Source: a virus (lineage: Duplodnaviria > Caudoviricetes). From it: DNA of 64,000 bases. This document shows positions 11,445 through 21,188 of the stretch, piece by piece. The position numbers and the translations under genes are program-made. The stretch covers positions 20,997 through 84,996 of IMG/VR virus record IMGVR_UViG_3300033072_000249. One strand, given 5' to 3'. The notes below the pieces were generated by a model that saw nothing but the letters and a program-made list of their open reading frames with translations, was not told the origin of the DNA and made no database searches. Numbering within the stretch: the first letter of the stretch is position 1; every line of letters begins with the position of its first letter.

Positions 11445-14400
11445 ATGTACGAAGACCTGATCGTCCCCGCCGGCGGATCGTTGCCGGCCACCACCAGTCC
11501 ATCGGCAAACCCTGCACCGGCCGGCGGCAACGTCGAGTCTTTCGTGCAGACCTATTTGCCTTTGGCTCAGAAGGTTTCCGAGAAGACTGGTGTGGCCCCC
11601 GAGTCGCTGCTGGGGCAGTGGGGTCTCGAGACCGGATGGGGTAAGAGCGTCATCCCTGGCACCAACAACCTGGGCAACATCAAGGATGTGACCCGCAAGG
11701 GGCCGGTGGCGGTTGACAACATGACGAAGTCGTCTGACTCGTACATGGCATTCGAGACCCCCGATCAGTTCGGCGACCACTACGTCGGTCTGCTGGGTCG
11801 CCGCTACAAGACCGCAATGGGTGCTGGCGATGACTCGCAGAAGTTCTTCACCGAGCTCAAGCGCAGCGGCTACGCCGAAGACCCGGGCTACATCCAGAAG
11901 GGTGTGAACGCCGCCAACATGGTGGCAAAGGTGCTGGGCGGCGAGGGCCGCCAGATGACCACTGTTCGCGATCCGCAGGCTGCCGCACCAGCGCCTGGTG
12001 GCGAATACTTCATGCCCCAGCGCGGCGTGTATGCCGACCTGATCGTGCCACCCGAGCCTCGCTCGTTTGGCGAGGCCGCTGCTGATACAGCCCTCGGCGC
12101 CGCATCCGGCGTGGTGCAGGGCGTGGGCCTGCTGGCCAATGTGGCAGGCGCAGATAACCCTGTGTCCCGTGGTGCCAGCGAGATCTCACAGAGCCTGATG
12201 GGCATGCAGTCTCCGCAGCGCCAGGCCGAGCGCGCCGCTCGCGCCGACACCATCCGCGCAGCCGAGGAAACGGGCAGCACCTGGGAGGAGATCAAGGCCA
12301 ACGTGGGCGGCTTCCTTGAGGCCCCCGTCGAGACCACACTCAATGCCCTGGGCACCAGCGCCCCGACCATCCTGACCGCATTCATTCCCGGCCTGGGCCA
12401 AGCTGGCGCTGCACGCCTGATTCTGCAGGGTGCGCTGGGTGCCGCCCAGGGCGCTGGCGCGGTGAAGGGATCGATCTACGAGTCGGTGGAGCGCAAGCTG
12501 GTCGAGAGTGGCCTGTCGAAAGATGAGGCAGCCAAGATCGCTGCCGGCGCGCAAGCCTACGACAGCGAGAACGGTGGCAACATCGCGGCCGGCGCCATCC
12601 TCGGAGCTGCCGCGGGCACGACCGGTATCGAGGCGATGCTCAGCAAAGCGATGGGTGGCAACGCTGCAGCTCGTGGCTTGTTGGCTCGCGCCGGCATTGG
12701 CGTCGCAACGGAGGCCCCCGTCGAAGGCGCTCAAGGCGGGCAGGAGCGCTACGCCTCCAACGTCGCCCTACAGAACGAGGGGTTCGATGTCCCCACCTTC
12801 CAGGGCGTTGCAGGCCAGGCCGCCGGTGAGGCCGTCGCCAGCGCACCTGGTGGCGCCGCATTCGGCGCGCTCACACCGCCGGGCCCTGTGCCTGCGCCGA
12901 TCCCGCCCGAGCTGCAGCCGGTTGCAGACAAGGCCGCCGAACCCAACAGCCCACTGTCCAAGGCCGCCATGGCCGGCGTGCAGACCGGCGCCGCTCAGGC
13001 TGCATTGCAGCCTGCAGCGCCCCAGGTGGACCCGATGCAGCGCCTGGCCGAGCTCGAGGCCATCGGCAAAGACAAGCCGGCGCAACAGGTCACCGACGAA
13101 GCAGGCAACCCGCTGACCGCCCCTGGCGAGCGCGGCCGCTTCTTCACCGCCGAAGAGAAGGCTGAATACGACCAGCTCAAGGCCCTGCGTGACTCAACCC
13201 CCGGCATGACGCCGGAGGATCGCGACCAAGTCCAGCAGGCTGAAGTCTCGCAGCGCGACGAGATCCTGGAGCGCGTGACCGAGATCCGTGAGCTGCTGCG
13301 CGTGCCTGGCGCGCTGGATAGCCTGCGCGCCGAGGGCGCACCCACCACGGTGCAGAAATTCCTGGGCGACCTGGCTACCGCCGCCAGCAAGTCCGCATCG
13401 CCCGCTGTGCGTGAGCAGGCCCTGAACCGCGCCGAGATGGCGGCCGAGGTCGCCGGCCTGCAGCTGCAGCGCCGCGACGACATGCCGCGCTCGCAGACCA
13501 ATGAGCGGACTGGCCCGCCCACCCGGGCAGACCAGGCTGCCGGCATGGTGACATCCACGGCAGGCATCTCGGCCGATGAGCGCGTCGAGGCGCTGCAGGC
13601 CATCGCAGCCTACCGCAATCCCAACCTGCCCGCCGGCACGCGCCAGGCCGCGCTGAATCGCGCGCTGGAGATCGTTGGCCGCGCCCAGGCTCCCCGGGGT
13701 ACGCCGTCCGATCGTCAGACGCCGGCAGTCCTGGACGAGATCCCGCCGCAGCCCAACACGCCCGAGTGGTTCGAGGCTGAGGCCAAGCGTCGCGAGGAGG
13801 GCGCATGGCAGTTCCGCCAGCTTGGCTACGACGACGAGGCCGACGCGCTGCTGGCAGAGATTGACCCGCTGCTCGAGGCCGCCGCGTCCGCGCGCGCTGG
13901 AGAGCTCGGCATGGAGGACTCGGCGGCCGAGGGTGATGGCATTGCTTCGCCCGTTGCGCAACAAACAGTTGACCAGGCAACCGCCGGTTTGCCGCGCGCA
14001 CCAATTGCCCCTGAGGATGTCAGTCGCCCAGCAGAAGAGCGCACCGCCGCGCGCCGCAAGCGCCGTGGCCAGTTCCGCCAGCTCGCCGACCTGGGCTTCG
14101 AGACCGTGGAGCGTGATGGCGACGGCTTCGTGCTGCGCAACGCTAAGACGGGTCAGGCGGTGACCCTGGAGTCTGCGGCTGATGCGCAGCTGGCACGCAT
14201 GGCCATCAAGGACGCCGTCGATGCCAAGGCCCACACCGCGGCAGCGAGCCCGCTGAACGATCGCAAGGAGCCCACCGAGGGTCAGATCCGCGCCGGCAAC
14301 TACAAGAAGTCGGACGTGATCGAGATGAACGGCGTCAAGGTCGTCATCGAGAACCCGCGCGGCAGCGTGCGCCGTGGCGTGGGCGCTGATGGCAAGCCTT

Positions 14401-17400
14401 GGGAAACCGAGATGAAGCACCACTACGGCGAGATCGTCGGCACCGAGGGTGCTGATGGCGACCGCGTGGATGTTTTCATCGGTAGCCGCCCGGACAGCAA
14501 CCGCATCTTCATCGTCGACCAGGTCAACGAGGATGGCTCGTTCGATGAGCACAAGGTGGTGTTCGGCGCCACCAGCGAGGCTGACGCGCGAAAGACCTAC
14601 CTCGACAACTACGAGAAGGGCTGGACTGGCCTGGGTTCCATCAAGGAGATGGCTCAGCCCGACTTTGTCCAGTGGGTCAAGTCTCGTGCCGCGAAGAAGC
14701 CCGCATCCGAGAGTGAGATCGGCACCTTCACGGTCACCAGCGACGGCAAGACCTACACACTGCGTTCCGTCGCCGTGGATGGCATGCCAGCTGCCGCCGA
14801 CTCGGCTGCGCGCGGCGAGCGCGGCCAGCGCATCACCAAGAACCAGGCACTCCTGCTCAAGGGTCTGGCCGGCTTCTTCGGCAAGGACGTGGTCTTCTTC
14901 TCCGACCCGGAGAACAAGGTCAACGCCGACGGCTTCATCAAGCCCGGCGACAACGTCACGCTCTACATCAACGAGCGTTCCGGCATTTCGCCGCTGGCAG
15001 TGTTCGGCCACGAGCTGATGCACCTGCTGAAGCTCGATAACCCTGTGGCCTATGCCGCCATCGAGAAGGTGGTGCGCGATCGCGTGGCAGACCCCAAGGG
15101 TTTCCGCGCCGACTACGAAGGCAAGAAGCGCGACGACGCCAAGGATGGCGACCTCAGCTCTGCCGAGCTCGAGGAGCTGATCAGCGACCTCAACGGCAAC
15201 CTGATGGGCGACGCTGCATTCTGGAAGTCGGTGTTCGATGAGATCCAGGGCGCCGCCGGCAAGGAAGCCAAGGGCATCATCGCCCAGCTGCAGGCATTCC
15301 TGCAGCGCATGCTGGACGGCGCGGTTGCCGCGTTCAAGGGTCAGCCCACCTTCAAGGCTGACGGCTTCATCAAGGACGCCGACGCTGTGCGCGCCGCGTT
15401 CCGCACAGGCCTGGCGCAGTGGGCTCAGTCCCAGGGCATCACCAAGGCGGCCATGCAGGGTGAGCTCCTGCGCGCCGAGAAGAAGCTGGGCGACGTCAAG
15501 AAGTCGACGCCTCGGCCGACCGATGGCCTCACGGTCACCGGCTACCACTTCAGCAAGCAGCCGCGCACGCTGCTGACCACGGGCTTCTTCGGCACCGGCC
15601 TGCAGGGCAGCGACCGCGAGCAGATCATGGCTCACCCGGATCGCCGCCTGCGTGAGCGCCTGTCGTTCTATGCGAACAAGGGCACCGGCGTGCGCCCCGA
15701 GTCTGGTGTTGGCGGCATCGCCCACAAGGCCGAGCTCACCAACATCTACGACTCCGACGCCGACATGAAGCGCCTGAAGGAAGGGCGCGATCGCCGCGGC
15801 TTCGAGTCGGCTGTGATCAACGTCGGCTACTCGGGCTACCTGTCCCGCCTCGAGGGCAGCCAGCCAGCCCAGGTGATCCTGCTGGGCCGCCAGACCGTCA
15901 CCCCTGAGGTGCTGGGCCCTCGCAACCAGATCGACGACGCACCGCTGGTGCCGGCGAAGCAGCAGCGCCCGATGAACCTGGGCGACAAGATCCTGGCCAA
16001 CAAAGCCCTGCCGGCCGGCAAGATGCCGCCGCAGACCTGGGCCAAGATCCTGATGGCCACCATGCCCGAGGAGGCAGCCCAGCTGCTGGACGTCGGCGCC
16101 CTGGGCACCAAGGACGTCTACAAGGACGAGCTGGTCCGCATGATCCGCGAGGCCAGTGGCGACATCAAGAAGTCCGCCGCCCGCGCCAAGAGCGAATTCG
16201 CCGAGGTCGAGGCCAAGTACAAGGACACCGACCAGTGGCTCAAGGCTCCGAACGGCGCCAAGACCAACCTGAACCAGCGCCAGTGGGTGCAGGTCCGCAC
16301 ACCGGCGTTCAAGAAGTGGTTCGGCGACTGGGAGGCCGCGGCCGCCAAGGGCGGCGTGTGGGCCAGCAACGACGTCTCCAAGGCGGTCGACGAGAACGGC
16401 GAGCCGCTGGTGGTCTACCACGGCACCGACAAGGGTGGCTTCTCGGAGTTCAAGGAGCCCGGTGGCACGAAGCGCGGCGACCTCGGCATCTTCACCACGC
16501 CGAATCGGTGGATGGCATCCAGCTACGTCCGCAAAGGTCGAGCGGGAGCTATCACAGAAGACAAGCTGCAGCCACAGGATGCCGAGATCAAGGATCTCGG
16601 GTTCTCGTTGCCAAATGGAAACCGCTGGGTTCTGAGTCTCGATGGAGGCAAGCGTCAGTCCTACTACGAGACCGAGGAGGCTGCACAAGACGCGCTCGAG
16701 TCGATGGGTGGCGAAAAGACGTCTGGCGTCTACGCCCTGTTCCTCAACATCCGCGACCCGAACGAGTCTGACTTCGAGGGCGCACTGTGGAGTGGTGAGC
16801 GGCCGGACCAATACCAGGTCCGCAACGAGGATGGCGAGAACATCGAGTGGGATGGTCGAATCTACTTCGACCTCGAGACTGCGCAGCGCCTGGCCGACGA
16901 GAACGAGGGCGCCGAGGTGGAGCCGGCCGACGACCGCTTCGAGACCACCGACGATGTGGTCAAGGACGCCCGCCGCTATGATAACGACGGCGCCATTATT
17001 CGCAACGTCATCGACGATGGCGGTGGCGGTGGCGGCTACGACCTTGAGCCCAGCGACGTCTTCGTTGCCCTTGATCCAAGCCAGCTGAAGAGCGCCGACT
17101 TCAACGGCGGCGAGTTCAGCGCAGACAGCGACGACATCCGCAAGAGCGAGAAGCGCGAGTACAAGCTGGACATTGAGCGCGAGAGCCGCGTCAAAAGCAA
17201 GGCTGTCCGCATGCTCCCGGAAGAGCTGGCAGCGATCGACGCCGACGCCAAGAAGCTGGGCCTGTCAACTGTTCAGGTCAAGTCCATCATCGACAGCGCC
17301 AAGGCAACCAAGCGTCAGTACCCCGCCTCCGAGGGTTGGGCTCCGATCTCTGTTGTCGGTGTCAACGTCAAGAAAGACGACGACGGAAACCAGATTGCTG

Positions 17401-20303
17401 GCACCGAGGAGCCGAAGTTCAAGGAGATCTCCTACGGCTTCAACGTCACCCCTGGCAAGACTCGCGCATCGCCGAAGATGGACACCGAGCTCGCAGGCAA
17501 GGTGGCCAAGAAGTTCGAGCAGCTGATCCTCGAGATCTACGACCGGGCACAGTCTGGCGATAAGAACGCGCAGATCATCGTCGGCCATCAGACCTGGTAT
17601 CGCAACGTGGCCGAGGTGCTGCGCCGTGAGTACGGCGCCACGGGCGACATGCTGGCTGACCTGCTGGGCGCCACGTCGCCCAACACTCCGGTCGACACGA
17701 ACTGGAAGTTCTCCATCGACATCATGCGCCGCTTTGTGCGCGGCGACTTCGATGAGCAGCTGGAGAAGTTCTCGCAGTTCGTTGAGCGCGGTGGCGACCC
17801 GTCGAAGTACCCGGCTGCCGACAAGATCCGCCAGATCAGCGGCAAGCTGTACGGCATGAACTCGACCAACGCCATGAAGGCACTGGTCGACATGTGGCGC
17901 GTGATCGAGCCCGGCCAGGCGCCCAAGGCGCGCAACTTCGCATTGAACCTGATCGGCCAGTCCAATATGGCCACCATCGACGTGTGGGCTGCCCGCATGC
18001 TGCGCCGCGCCGCCAACATGGTGCGTGGCGTCAAGCTGCCTCGCATCCCGCCTGCTGCAGAGACCGGCGTCACCGGCAACTGGAATGCCGATGGCACCAA
18101 GGTCACCGGCGAGTTCGGCTTCGGTGCCGAGGTCATGCAGATGGTCTCAGATTCGCTGGACAAGCGTGGCATCAAGGTGTCGCCGCCTGACCTCCAGGCC
18201 ATCGCCTGGTTTGCTGAGAAGGAGCTCTGGGGTCAGAAGGGCTGGACCACCAAGACCGGCGAGGGTGGCTCCTTCGAGGAAAACATCGAGGCCACACCGG
18301 TGGAGCGCTACCTGGCCGGCTGGAGCATCCAGCAAGGCGAGAAGCGCCCCGATGAAGGCGAGTCCAGCATGGCCCAGGCGCGGGTGATGTCGATGCTGGT
18401 TGGCGACGACACCGTCCTAGCCGCCCGGGTGCTGCCGACCTATGGCCTGTATGGCGGCACCATTGAGGCCTCATTCGATACTGAATGGACTGCCCAGAAG
18501 GGCAAGCACGATCCGACCATGGTGATGGCCGAGATCGCGAAGCTGGCCCAAGAAAACAACCAGTGGGACATCTTCGTGTCTCGTGTGGTACAGCCTGGCG
18601 AGGACAACCCGAACGCCCGCCCAGGCGTCGAGATCTACTTCCGCGACAGGAAGTCGCTCGACCAGGCCATGCCAGTTTTGGAGCGCTTCACCTCGCGCGG
18701 CCAGGATGGCTTTACAATGGCGGTGGACCCGCGAGCCAAGCGAAAAGGCTTGGACGACCAAGAGTTTATTGGCGTCCGCCTGCAGTACGTGCCCGAGATC
18801 TCGATGCGCTGGGATGACACTCTCCGCGATGAGATCCTGAAGCCCGGAGCTGCCGACAAGATCCTCGGCGAGAAGCGTCAGCTCCTCCACGAGATCGCGC
18901 GCGAAGTTCGCTCCATGGATGGCGTGGCCTTTGCGGCCATGCAGCAGTACGACACGGTTGTCGTCGGAAAGGAAAGCTACGATGAGTACATTGATCGAGC
19001 AACTGAGGAAGGACGTCAGGGAGCTCGAGCGCAAGCATGGTTCGGACGACCCGTACGTCAAGGACTTGAAGGAGCAGCTGCGCGCCTCCGAGGCGAACGC
19101 CGGCAAGTCGACCGAGGAGGTTTACAAGATGCAGGCGACGCAGTTCAAGCCGACCCTGCCGGACGAGCCGATGCGCGAGCAATTCTCGACGCAGGAGGAG
19201 TTCGACGAAGCCCGAGCCGGGTGGATGCATCGGGTCGGAAAGATCAAGGCTCTGGGCGCGAAGAAGACGGGAGCCTGAAGGGTTTGCCGCGCGACTTCAA
19301 GGTCGCCGGCATCGACATCCGCGCCAGCCACTGGGCACCCGCCGAGGCTGTAGCGCGCAAGTACATGGAGGGCGCCGGCCTCGAATACCGGCCGCCAACC
19401 CAGTACGCCAAGGTCGACAAGGAGCGTGCCGCGCGCATCGCTGCCGAGTACGACCGGATGAAGCACGACCCGCAGAACCCCATGGTCAAGGCCGCCTACA
19501 AGGCCCTGGCCAAGGAGACGATCGCCCAATACAAGGCTGTGATCGACAGTGGCCTCGAGGTCGAGTTCATCGACTTTGCCGTCCAGGGAGACCCCTACGC
19601 CGCCAGCCCACGCCTGGCCACCGAGGACGTGCGCAACAACAACCACATGTGGGTGTTCAGCACACGCGATGGCTTTGGCTCCAACGCAGACTTCGACCCT
19701 GAGGACAATCCGCTCCTGGCAGAGACGGAGTTCATGATCAGTGGCCAGCGCGCCCTGGTGAATGACCTGTTCCGCGTGGTCCACGACTACTTCGGCCACG
19801 TCAAGGAAGGCGTCGGCTTCCGGGCCGACGGCGAGGAAAACACCTGGCGCGCGCACAGCTCGATGTTCAGCCCGCTGGCCCAGCGCGCACTGACCACCGA
19901 GACCCGCGGCCAGAACAGCTGGGTGAACTACGGCCCCCACGGCGAGAAGAACCGCACCGCCTCCGCTGGCGACACGATCTTCGCCGACCAGAAGACCGGG
20001 TTGCTGCCGCTGTGGGTGAGCGAAGAGGGGCGCTACGACGACATCACAAAGTCGCCCGCTCGAGTGGATGACGACGAGATCACCGTTACGATCGGTGACG
20101 ATGCGCCGGCCGCGCCGCAAGCCCCCACATCCAAGGACGAGGTGACCGCTCAGGAAGCCAAGGGCAAGAGTGTCACCTACGACGTCGAGGTCGAGGACAC
20201 CGGCGAGACCGCCAAGATGACGGTCGACGCTGGCCAAGCCCTGGCCGACTACGACGAGCGGATCGACACCATGAAGAAACTGTTGGAGTGCCTGAAGAAA
20301 TGA
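11445..20303 (+). CDS. giant polyvalent ejection protein 1 (2952 aa): FlgJ-like glucosaminidase, InPase-like, HExxH metallopeptidase, ART-like domains, HhH-like and unknown domains
   Basis: GQWGLETGWG/NNLGNIK/YAEDPGY (~11535-11925); GNYKK..IENPRG..HYG.I.GT.GADGD.VDVF (14230-14685); HELMH (15009-15023); YHGT..GIFTT..A..Y..FLNIRDP..DG..QLKS (16185-17130); TWY..SPNT..KARNF..N..TIDVW (17560-18290); HDYFGH (~19780). Confidence 0.85.
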   Translation: MYEDLIVPAGGSLPATTSPSANPAPAGGNVESFVQTYLPLAQKVSEKTGVAPESLLGQWGLETGWGKSVIPGTNNLGNIKDVTRKGPVAVDNMTKSSDSYMAFETPDQFGDHYVGLLGRRYKTAMGAGDDSQKFFTELKRSGYAEDPGYIQKGVNAANMVAKVLGGEGRQMTTVRDPQAAAPAPGGEYFMPQRGVYADLIVPPEPRSFGEAAADTALGAASGVVQGVGLLANVAGADNPVSRGASEISQSLMGMQSPQRQAERAARADTIRAAEETGSTWEEIKANVGGFLEAPVETTLNALGTSAPTILTAFIPGLGQAGAARLILQGALGAAQGAGAVKGSIYESVERKLVESGLSKDEAAKIAAGAQAYDSENGGNIAAGAILGAAAGTTGIEAMLSKAMGGNAAARGLLARAGIGVATEAPVEGAQGGQERYASNVALQNEGFDVPTFQGVAGQAAGEAVASAPGGAAFGALTPPGPVPAPIPPELQPVADKAAEPNSPLSKAAMAGVQTGAAQAALQPAAPQVDPMQRLAELEAIGKDKPAQQVTDEAGNPLTAPGERGRFFTAEEKAEYDQLKALRDSTPGMTPEDRDQVQQAEVSQRDEILERVTEIRELLRVPGALDSLRAEGAPTTVQKFLGDLATAASKSASPAVREQALNRAEMAAEVAGLQLQRRDDMPRSQTNERTGPPTRADQAAGMVTSTAGISADERVEALQAIAAYRNPNLPAGTRQAALNRALEIVGRAQAPRGTPSDRQTPAVLDEIPPQPNTPEWFEAEAKRREEGAWQFRQLGYDDEADALLAEIDPLLEAAASARAGELGMEDSAAEGDGIASPVAQQTVDQATAGLPRAPIAPEDVSRPAEERTAARRKRRGQFRQLADLGFETVERDGDGFVLRNAKTGQAVTLESAADAQLARMAIKDAVDAKAHTAAASPLNDRKEPTEGQIRAGNYKKSDVIEMNGVKVVIENPRGSVRRGVGADGKPWETEMKHHYGEIVGTEGADGDRVDVFIGSRPDSNRIFIVDQVNEDGSFDEHKVVFGATSEADARKTYLDNYEKGWTGLGSIKEMAQPDFVQWVKSRAAKKPASESEIGTFTVTSDGKTYTLRSVAVDGMPAAADSAARGERGQRITKNQALLLKGLAGFFGKDVVFFSDPENKVNADGFIKPGDNVTLYINERSGISPLAVFGHELMHLLKLDNPVAYAAIEKVVRDRVADPKGFRADYEGKKRDDAKDGDLSSAELEELISDLNGNLMGDAAFWKSVFDEIQGAAGKEAKGIIAQLQAFLQRMLDGAVAAFKGQPTFKADGFIKDADAVRAAFRTGLAQWAQSQGITKAAMQGELLRAEKKLGDVKKSTPRPTDGLTVTGYHFSKQPRTLLTTGFFGTGLQGSDREQIMAHPDRRLRERLSFYANKGTGVRPESGVGGIAHKAELTNIYDSDADMKRLKEGRDRRGFESAVINVGYSGYLSRLEGSQPAQVILLGRQTVTPEVLGPRNQIDDAPLVPAKQQRPMNLGDKILANKALPAGKMPPQTWAKILMATMPEEAAQLLDVGALGTKDVYKDELVRMIREASGDIKKSAARAKSEFAEVEAKYKDTDQWLKAPNGAKTNLNQRQWVQVRTPAFKKWFGDWEAAAAKGGVWASNDVSKAVDENGEPLVVYHGTDKGGFSEFKEPGGTKRGDLGIFTTPNRWMASSYVRKGRAGAITEDKLQPQDAEIKDLGFSLPNGNRWVLSLDGGKRQSYYETEEAAQDALESMGGEKTSGVYALFLNIRDPNESDFEGALWSGERPDQYQVRNEDGENIEWDGRIYFDLETAQRLADENEGAEVEPADDRFETTDDVVKDARRYDNDGAIIRNVIDDGGGGGGYDLEPSDVFVALDPSQLKSADFNGGEFSADSDDIRKSEKREYKLDIERESRVKSKAVRMLPEELAAIDADAKKLGLSTVQVKSIIDSAKATKRQYPASEGWAPISVVGVNVKKDDDGNQIAGTEEPKFKEISYGFNVTPGKTRASPKMDTELAGKVAKKFEQLILEIYDRAQSGDKNAQIIVGHQTWYRNVAEVLRREYGATGDMLADLLGATSPNTPVDTNWKFSIDIMRRFVRGDFDEQLEKFSQFVERGGDPSKYPAADKIRQISGKLYGMNSTNAMKALVDMWRVIEPGQAPKARNFALNLIGQSNMATIDVWAARMLRRAANMVRGVKLPRIPPAAETGVTGNWNADGTKVTGEFGFGAEVMQMVSDSLDKRGIKVSPPDLQAIAWFAEKELWGQKGWTTKTGEGGSFEENIEATPVERYLAGWSIQQGEKRPDEGESSMAQARVMSMLVGDDTVLAARVLPTYGLYGGTIEASFDTEWTAQKGKHDPTMVMAEIAKLAQENNQWDIFVSRVVQPGEDNPNARPGVEIYFRDRKSLDQAMPVLERFTSRGQDGFTMAVDPRAKRKGLDDQEFIGVRLQYVPEISMRWDDTLRDEILKPGAADKILGEKRQLLHEIAREVRSMDGVAFAAMQQYDTVVVGKESYDEYIDRATEEGRQGARAQAWFGRPVRQGLEGAAARLRGERRQVDRGGLQDAGDAVQADPAGRADARAILDAGGVRRSPSRVDASGRKDQGSGREEDGSLKGLPRDFKVAGIDIRASHWAPAEAVARKYMEGAGLEYRPPTQYAKVDKERAARIAAEYDRMKHDPQNPMVKAAYKALAKETIAQYKAVIDSGLEVEFIDFAVQGDPYAASPRLATEDVRNNNHMWVFSTRDGFGSNADFDPEDNPLLAETEFMISGQRALVNDLFRVVHDYFGHVKEGVGFRADGEENTWRAHSSMFSPLAQRALTTETRGQNSWVNYGPHGEKNRTASAGDTIFADQKTGLLPLWVSEEGRYDDITKSPARVDDDEITVTIGDDAPAAPQAPTSKDEVTAQEAKGKSVTYDVEVEDTGETAKMTVDAGQALADYDERIDTMKKLLECLKK
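18982..19278 (+). CDS. nested overprinted ORF (98 aa, +1 frame) inside giant protein 1
   Basis: AAAGGAAAG RBS upstream of ATG 18982; GC3-rich codons in this frame while the host frame becomes R/G/A-rich with A/T third positions. Confidence 0.65.
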   Translation: MSTLIEQLRKDVRELERKHGSDDPYVKDLKEQLRASEANAGKSTEEVYKMQATQFKPTLPDEPMREQFSTQEEFDEARAGWMHRVGKIKALGAKKTGA

Positions 20304-20710
20304 AGCGCAAAGTCAAGTCAGCATCCGACCTGAAGCGCCTGGCACTTCAGACCGGCGCGTCCGTCGAGATGGGTGGCGGCCGCTTCAACACCAGCATGGA
20401 GCGCGCGCGGCCTGAGCCCACAACTCCACCGCCGCCTCCCGTTGTGGTCGTCGCGCCCGTTGAGGCTCCGCAGCCTGCGCCGGCCCCGCAGCCGATCAGT
20501 CACACCGAGCAGATCCAGGTCAACCTGGACATGGGCCCCGTGGCCGATGCCGTCAACAAGGGGAACGAGCGCATCACCGAGGTGATCACCGAATCCCTGA
20601 AGCAGTTGCATGTTCCAGCCCAGGGCCAGAAGCCGTGCAGCTGGATCTTCACCATCAAGCGCGACACCAGGGGCTTCATTGAGTCCGTGGAAGCCGCTCC
20701 AAAACAGTGA
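20300..20710 (+). CDS. hypothetical protein with Pro-rich linker
   Basis: ATGA overlap with the stop of giant protein 1. Confidence 0.7.
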   Translation: MKRKVKSASDLKRLALQTGASVEMGGGRFNTSMERARPEPTTPPPPPVVVVAPVEAPQPAPAPQPISHTEQIQVNLDMGPVADAVNKGNERITEVITESLKQLHVPAQGQKPCSWIFTIKRDTRGFIESVEAAPKQ

Positions 20711-20713
20711 CTT

Positions 20714-20729
20714 GGCGGTAGAATCCGCC
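20714..20729 (+). promoter_or_regulatory. TAGAAT -10 flanked by GGCGG/CCGCC
   Basis: GGCGG-TAGAAT-CCGCC in the 38-bp gap before 20749. Confidence 0.35.
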
Positions 20730-20748
20730 CGAAATTTTTGAGAGGTCA

Positions 20749-20958
20749 ATGATGCTGCAGGCAATCACTGGGACGCTGGCGCTGATCGATGTGAACACGG
20801 AGTCTCCCAAGGTCTTCTGGCGCGGCAGTCAGCTCGCCGTCCAGGCGGTCTCCGTCGTCGAGCGGAAGGTTTTTCTGCGTGTGAAGCGCGGCACCTTCCC
20901 GGTTGACTTGATCGCAGACCTGCGGTCCAACGAGGTTGAAGTTCGGGAGGTTGCATGA
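20749..20958 (+). CDS. hypothetical protein
   Basis: GAGG RBS, 69 aa. Confidence 0.65.
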   Translation: MMLQAITGTLALIDVNTESPKVFWRGSQLAVQAVSVVERKVFLRVKRGTFPVDLIADLRSNEVEVREVA

Positions 20959-21188
20959 GCACATTTCTTTTGATCGTCCCAGATGGCTGGAGCGAGATGG
21001 CCGACGCGCAAGCGTTTGTTGATCTGCACACCGAAGCCCAGTTGCTCGACTTGCTCAGCTACGGCAACCTCGCAGCAATCGAGGCCATGCTGCAGGACGG
21101 CGGCGTGATCGCACCGGACGCAGCCATGGCCGACTTCCGCATGTTCCGCGATGGCGATGTCTACCGCGTCTGGTATCGGGTGGGATAA
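20955..21188 (+). CDS. hypothetical acidic protein
   Basis: GGAGG RBS, ATGA overlap, 77 aa. Confidence 0.65.
   Translation: MSTFLLIVPDGWSEMADAQAFVDLHTEAQLLDLLSYGNLAAIEAMLQDGGVIAPDAAMADFRMFRDGDVYRVWYRVG

Follow-up and report, generated by a model that had tools for sequence, protein, structure and literature searches.

The 64,000-nt stretch of tailed-phage DNA analysed here (hereafter the window) comes from a phage record of 85 kb in IMG/VR (IMGVR_UViG_3300033072_000249, positions 20,997 to 84,996) and carries, at 18982–19278, a reading frame for a 98-aa protein that lies entirely within the +1 frame of a gene encoding a 2952-aa polyvalent protein. Comparison with related loci makes it very probable that this reading frame is a real, selected and translated gene. 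The explanation that best accounts for the data as a whole, and which we consider probable, is that of a gene translated on its own, which overprints the late mRNA for the polyvalent protein in the +1 frame. The two halves of the small gene are linked to two different domains of the host protein, here named UP and DOWN, between which it is located. The features referred to below are as follows.

11445..20303, + strand: host gene for a 2952-aa phage polyvalent (multi-effector, virion-associated) protein, with the Pfam domains Glucosaminidase, InPase, ART-PolyVal and DUF7178
18288..19100, + strand: UP domain, host frame; tandem ferredoxin-like alpha+beta domain with a conserved C-terminal tail
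18966..18976, + strand: Shine–Dalgarno (SD)-like purine run GGAAAGGAAAG, 8 nt upstream of the nested ATG, doubling as the host codons G-K-E
18982..19278, + strand: nested gene, +1 frame of 11445..20303; 98 aa; helices at residues 4–19, 24–38, 44–51 and 71–96
18982..19137, + strand: N-module, residues 1–52; family-defining helical hairpin, always after UP
19100..19256, + strand: host-frame linker rich in R, G and A and without constraint of its own; contains the non-conserved GVRRSPSR
19114..19131, + strand: internal GAGGAGG and ATG (Met50), a possible second start for a 49-aa product comprising type A only; the same site was picked in the relative L039
19150..19254, + strand: type-A module, residues about 57–91; C-terminal amphipathic helix, tied to DOWN
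19257..20084, + strand: DOWN domain (HDYFGH family), host frame; opens with a conserved REEDGSL-x-GLPR motif, on which the nested gene's tail and stop are superimposed

Coding signal and integrity of the nested reading frame

The nested open reading frame (ORF) extends from an ATG at 18982 to a stop codon at 19276–19278 and is thus complete within an alternative frame of a longer gene; both the ORF and its translation are as first described in the original prediction, an initial reading of this DNA. Codon-usage log-odds were computed in sliding 40-codon windows (n = 529) over both giant ORFs of the window, and 18945–19275 was the only region in which a non-host frame, the +1 frame, scored above frame 0. 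Over the nested interval the third-position GC content (GC3) is 0.87 in the +1 frame, a value typical of the genome, as compared with 0.39 in the host frame, the flanks of which have a host-frame GC3 of 0.81–0.87. The earlier claim of a codon switch confined to this interval is therefore borne out. Independent contigs from four studies span 18700–19600 without any indel, contradicting the scenario in which an assembly error has fused separate genes. The phage recurs in activated sludge, in 13 studies. No slippery heptamer or homopolymer is found within 18900–19278, and none of the 117 or so protein clusters related to the small protein (see below) includes a long relative carrying the module genuinely in frame. 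The unique coding signal, the indel-free independent contigs and the lack of a slippery site together led us to judge the initial observation correct. Just past the nested stop, the host frame contains GGGTTTG (19280–19286), of the form X XXY YYZ, within the conserved G-L-P codons; this is probably coincidental.

The openness of the ORF in the window itself was dropped as evidence, since the probability of an open frame given the host protein sequence, P(open), is 0.97 in this gene of 65% GC. The case was therefore built on comparison with other loci. A 119-aa form beginning at an ATG at 18919 was also discarded; its N-terminal extension is not conserved and the family begins at 18982.

Linkage of the N-module to the UP domain

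Loci were gathered with the small protein and, separately, with the UP domain, the latter set being free of small-protein bias. In the unbiased UP scan, which reaches down to 39% UP identity and 42% GC, the N-module directly follows UP in the +1 frame, with a start codon and an SD-like motif, in 11 of 11 loci; in all, the N-module accompanies UP in 23 distinct loci. Three arrangements are encountered. The small gene is nested in the +1 frame of a long ORF after UP in the window and in L003–6, L011, L018/19, L022–25, L029–31, L033–36, L037 and L038. It is partly overlapped in L013, L014 and L017, where the UP-domain ORF stops inside or at the small gene. Finally, it stands alone in L007–10, L012, L015, L016, L020 and L021, with neither UP nor DOWN within the fetched flanks; among the neighbours of these stand-alone copies are genes for a Mob relaxase, an integrase and McrBC, as well as hsdM–hsdS immediately downstream.

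In a nucleotide tree of the N-module (165 alignment columns, with the most divergent UP lineages assumed as root), nested copies are basal and stand-alone copies derived. Three stand-alone groups are sister to nested copies (supports 0.88–0.97), and a fourth (L007–9) is weakly placed (0.66). This sister-group placement suggests that stand-alone copies have escaped repeatedly from the nested state.

Some individual loci deserve mention. The stand-alone gene of L020 (1045–1260) ends 2 nt before hsdM, which is followed by hsdS, and retains the AAGGAGAACTACG leader of the nested form. That of L021 (493–717) overlaps the start of the next ORF by 4 nt. The only isolate genome found with the element is that of Desulfobulbus alkaliphilus DSM 24258 (L038; NZ_JAFFQC010000004.1, about 166.7–175.0 kb), in which a 303-aa ORF retaining just the UP tail, probably a prophage remnant, encloses the small ORF.

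Linkage of the type-A module to the DOWN domain

The first clue concerning the C-terminal half was provided by phage MW202675, in which a 46-codon +1-frame ORF with AAGGAGG and an ATG stands just before the HDYYGH domain of an 848-aa protein and aligns to residues 56–88 of the window peptide. A scan for DOWN returned at least 580 viral loci. Among the best 80 of these, the type-A profile matched 44 (34 unique sequences), in every case in the +1 frame relative to DOWN and ending 2–59 nt before its residue 1; neither of the other two frames gave a match in these 80 loci. In a first pass, 41 of 43 type-A matches at E<0.01 were nested in a long host ORF. A start codon is present at each of the 34 unique loci (ATG in 32) and an SD-like motif of four bases or more at 30; the products have a median length of 57 aa. 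Elsewhere in phages, type A is as a rule a separate +1-frame microORF of 43–65 aa with its own SD and ATG.

Each half of the small gene is thus physically tied to one particular domain through shuffling, the N-module to UP and type A to DOWN, as the original prediction had anticipated for a gene that travels with the adjacent domain. Because UP and DOWN adjoin in the window, the 98-aa protein, to judge from these linkages, joins one unit linked to UP to another linked to DOWN. Initiation at Met50 could yield the type-A unit alone.

A related arrangement is seen in L040 (IMGVR_UViG_3300020176_000010), whose DOWN domain is 87% identical to that of the window: here, the upstream +1 ORF joins type A to a helical segment distantly resembling the N-module, which would imply further N-type modules tied to other upstream domains. 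Several unrelated small proteins (P0074, P0112, P0139) likewise end in type A, and P0099, of 174 aa, carries two tandem type-A-like modules.

The small-protein family

Thirty close homologs of the 98-aa peptide were found, called as proteins of 60–160 aa. A profile search of 1.8 billion representatives returned about 117 clusters, nearly all of them 43–200 aa long and aligned from residue 1 of both query and match; three long matches among them aligned in 8–11 short stretches each, which we read as coiled-coil noise. In the family alignment an N-module of about 52 residues is strongly conserved, and the C-terminal modules are variable. In the AlphaFold model of the 98-aa protein (predicted local distance difference test, pLDDT, 84), a helical hairpin is followed by a short helix and then by a long one at the C terminus. 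The earlier description of the peptide as two fused modules is borne out. The small protein had no significant match in Pfam, PHROGs, NCBIfam, PADLOC, PDB sequence profiles, the ESM Atlas or Foldseek-PDB, and tblastn against plasmids found nothing.

Signals for the proposed internal initiation

The ribosome-binding site put forward in the original prediction corresponds to the purine-rich run GGAAAGGAAAG listed above. A motif AAGGA(G/A) about 7–8 nt upstream of the start recurs in almost every nested locus and in stand-alone L020 too. In 18 of 18 aligned nested loci the start codon falls within one codon of the same position (17 ATG, one GTG). In sixteen, the start straddles a host codon that ends in T (GAT, AAT or CGT; in the window GAT, 18981–18983) and the G after it, the T being a host-synonymous site; such codons are used elsewhere in the same ORFs at 0.06–0.6. 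The 60 nt round the start are, on average, less structured than 86% of host-ORF windows and coincide with a local GC dip. A promoter scan of 17500–20800 found none. With no promoter-like site nearby, translation would proceed from the late giant mRNA, ribosomes initiating internally at the SD and ATG during synthesis of the giant protein.

Selection in each frame

Stand-alone copies are under purifying selection: the ratio of non-synonymous to synonymous differences per site (pN/pS) is 0.35 in their own frame as compared with 1.44 in the −1 frame, and Fitch changes are distributed over codon positions 1:2:3 as 35:29:84. For the type-A core the lowest pN/pS, 0.64, is that of the +1 frame; the host frame gives 1.11 and the +2 frame 0.99.

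Among the nested copies, individual residues are conserved in both frames. In the +1 frame, Leu33 is invariant although encoded by six codons (CTG, TTG, CTT, CTC, CTA, TTA), Lys30 is kept as AAG or AAA, and Q32 and the heptad-like positions L4, L8, I12 and L15 are also retained. In the host frame, the nucleotides xxT GGT T(C/T)G, specifying W-F-G, are kept in 17 of 18 loci, the preceding +1 residue varying between H, Y, F and R; P, R and E are kept as well (0.83–0.89), together with a fully invariant A and R. In an alignment of the UP tail from 16 loci, W, F and G are at least 90% conserved and one Ala and one Arg invariant. The tail comprises this WFG (19038–19046) and then a helix at about 19053–19088, and the AlphaFold2 model of UP plus tail is confident (pLDDT 84; predicted template modelling score, pTM, 0.83), including the tail helix (pLDDT about 86). 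The conserved residues in both frames and the confident model of the tail helix indicate that the first 35 or so nested codons are true dual coding, specifying in the host frame a structured UP tail and in the +1 frame the predicted hairpin of the small protein.

Not all of the apparent constraint is of this kind. Host-frame conservation is seen equally in the −1 frame of stand-alone genes, where stops occur, and much of it would therefore be a shadow. At the other end, where the conserved DOWN motif starts at 19257, the small gene's final seven codons and stop shadow that motif. The earlier view of a gene hidden in a linker thus holds for about 19100–19256, a true linker, but not for the first ~35 codons, which lie over the structured UP tail, nor for the last seven or so, which lie over the DOWN motif. 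Similarly, the host frame does read GVRRSPSR at about 19197–19220, as had been pointed out, but this supposed junction motif is kept in the closest relative only; since it differs in L011 and L002, we took it to be a shadow of the +1-frame QEEFDEA and rejected it as a host-frame motif.

The ORF is open in all 18 aligned nested loci, for which the naive product of P(open) is about 5e-7. Elsewhere, +1-frame windows are open at 0.002–0.41, and in loci of 42–51% GC they are mostly closed at this length.

The host gene and its flanking domains

The genes next to the host gene encode tail-fibre and internal virion proteins, a setting in keeping with its assignment as a polyvalent protein. UP corresponds to host residues about 2281–2550, and its fold matches are generic ferredoxin-like only. 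Its best structural neighbour, a phage S-adenosylmethionine (SAM) lyase of the anti-restriction enzyme class (6zm9_A; Z 9.3, root mean square deviation 2.8, 110 residues aligned), is marginal; this match, to a generic ferredoxin-like fold, was considered too weak to assign a function to UP. A tblastn search of cultured and deposited phages with the UP domain found nothing. DOWN has hundreds of relatives, all of them hypothetical, and no PHROG function or named relative. Neither domain matches any Pfam family.

Possible role of the small protein and alternative explanations

We propose that the small product would stay in the cytoplasm and act as a cognate partner of both flanking domains, either as an inhibitor keeping them harmless in the producer cell or as a holder keeping them fit for packaging. 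On this view, stand-alone copies in mobile elements or beside restriction genes would be orphan antidotes that were captured. That each module keeps strictly to its own domain, and that orphan copies lie in mobile elements next to restriction genes, is best accommodated by such a cognate inhibitor or holder; nevertheless, a domain-specific partner role is put forward tentatively, and we would give it somewhat less than an even chance. A complex prediction for UP plus tail with the small protein scored 0.00, which counts neither way.

Several observations weigh against this proposal or against the translated nested gene on which it depends. No toxin is recognised in either flanking domain, and purifying selection acts on stand-alone copies that have neither domain nearby. 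Thirty-six of the 80 DOWN loci lack a recognisable type-A ORF, some having degenerate look-alikes. The SD-like motif, like part of the start, cannot be separated from conservation of the host residues G-K-E-N-Y, and the loci are phylogenetically related, so that their P(open) values are not independent. Codon-position bias is weak in nested copies, both in Fitch changes (82:67:90 for positions 1:2:3) and between the window and L003, which differ at 11, 11 and 15 sites by position over the nested interval (third-position differences in the flanking domains amount to 141 of 332 and 69 of 254 sites). All three codon positions are constrained in nested copies, and the residues conserved in each of the two frames account for this. 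Finally, the bulk dN/dS of nested N-modules, the corresponding ratio of substitution rates, is only 0.65, and selection there is inferred from single columns and the start codon rather than from a clean dN/dS; frame-specific selection is apparent in stand-alone copies, in the type-A core and, at Leu33 and at the start-preserving T, in nested loci.

The main rival to a partner role is that of an autonomous microprotein, translated but acting as a separate effector or regulator in conflicts between mobile elements, for example in anti-restriction, and sharing DNA with the host gene because linkers tolerate overprinting. Stand-alone copies evolving under purifying selection with no UP or DOWN in the fetched flanks, and in the company of hsdM/hsdS, McrBC, relaxase and integrase genes, would be readily understood in this way; in fact, they fit orphan antidotes and an autonomous function equally well. 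An autonomous function would, however, leave unexplained why the modules remain faithful to one domain and one frame over deep divergence (11 of 11 loci for the N-module; 44 of 80 for type A, with none in other frames), and we regard it as possible but doubtful.

The remaining alternatives dispense with a translated nested gene. If the nested copies were relics, their +1-frame similarity would be inherited, they would no longer be translated, and only the stand-alone genes would be functional. The weak codon-position bias of nested copies and the high P(open) in GC-rich hosts are what such decay would predict, but we find it improbable: an ORF with a start and an SD-like motif persists in 18 of 18 nested loci, down to 39% UP identity and 42% GC, Leu33 is maintained through six codons and the start-preserving T through a host-synonymous site, and the tree places nested copies at the base and stand-alone copies in derived positions. 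Still less probable is a nucleotide-level element with no protein product, in which conservation would reflect RNA structure or a linker for recombination at the junctions between domains. The constraint on all three codon positions in nested copies, and the coincidence of the region with a breakpoint of domain shuffling, could be so explained; but stand-alone copies have an excess of third-position changes, conservation tracks amphipathic heptad positions and survives synonymous changes, and the family always begins at Met1 and ends at the stop.

Programmed frameshifting, whether a slip of the ribosome out of the host frame into +1, with a truncated giant protein as the result, or one in the opposite direction, with an extended DOWN protein, would make a separate gene superfluous and would account for the change of frame in conservation at both borders. 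It has slightly less to recommend it again, given the lack of a slippery heptamer or homopolymer and of a long in-frame homolog, the conserved start codon and SD-like motif, and the stand-alone genes that share the same start and end. As for an assembly or sequencing artefact with two compensating indels, nothing beyond the odd host-frame composition speaks for it, and it is refuted by the indel-free contigs and by the recurrence of the arrangement in more than 20 independent loci.

It is tempting to speculate beyond the window. Polyvalent proteins may carry a hidden second coding layer, made up of domain-edge microgenes in the +1 frame for cognate inhibitors or holders, which would be shuffled and fused with their domains and captured by bacterial mobile elements as antidotes against injected effectors; this wider proposal is, in our estimate, possible at best. 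Besides the N-module and type A it would include at least one further type, the module at L023 1308–1589. The coding scan also flagged two places where the +1 frame lies open at other junctions in a related giant protein, this interval and L023 435–704. In a single comparison, L023 1308–1589 was 52% identical over 33 residues (E 3e-8) to the N-terminal extension of the small protein P0048; this shared segment suggests a third overprinted module type, located upstream of a GVHFG...FYGTG domain. Another flagged open +1-frame interval within a giant ORF, L006 3898–4131, is of low complexity in both frames and may be a compositional artefact.

Polyvalent proteins rank with the largest and most poorly understood weapons of phages. 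Small proteins encoded within the same gene, missed by gene callers and each tied to one domain, are a candidate answer to the question of how the producer cell tolerates or handles a dozen enzymes in a single chain. Hundreds of phage genomes contain such genes that standard annotation overlooks; DOWN is found on at least 580 viral contigs, and about half of the best 80 carry type A. The system also represents an unusually clean case of natural dual coding, in which nested, partly overlapped and free versions are available for the study of the origin and escape of overprinted genes.

Comparison with known systems

Polyvalent proteins of phages and conjugative elements have been described by Iyer et al. 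2017 (PMC5512222). With its ART-PolyVal, InPase and lysin domains, encoded beside virion genes, the host protein is a typical member, differing in that UP and DOWN have no counterpart in Pfam. A term search of that paper showed 'overlapping', 'immunity protein', 'frameshift' and 'linker' to be absent, and our literature searches returned no description of nested genes in polyvalent proteins.

In phages, Rz/Rz1 pairs occur in embedded, partly overlapped and separated forms, and in lambda the two products work together. Embedded +1-frame phage genes are thus known, Rz1 within Rz of the phage lambda two-component spanin being an example (PMC6139136, PMC5295617). The nested gene resembles Rz1 in being a complete +1-frame gene with its own start inside another phage gene, and the three forms of Rz/Rz1 recall the nested loci, L013/14/17 and L007–21, respectively. 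In contrast to Rz1, a lipoprotein, the product here is predicted to be a soluble helical protein, and its host is a giant, virion-delivered multi-domain protein. Moreover, the nested gene spans a domain junction and itself fuses two units tied to different domains.

In polymorphic toxin/immunity cassettes (CdiA-CT/CdiI, Rhs), effector domains are swapped by recombination, each with a small cognate gene, and orphan immunity genes are found elsewhere. Modular domains that travel with a small gene, and orphan copies of the latter, are features shared with the loci described here. However, the immunity genes of those cassettes are separate downstream ORFs, whereas the candidates here lie over the 5′ or 3′ edge of the domain itself, in its +1 frame.

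Overprinting is classically exemplified by phiX174, in which gene B lies in A and gene E in D in a tiny genome under size pressure (see the review PMC8227390). Dual coding with frame-specific constraint in both frames is common to phiX174 and to the gene described here. By contrast, the gene described here overprints a junction between domains in a tailed phage of 85 kb, and seems to have escaped repeatedly to become a stand-alone gene.

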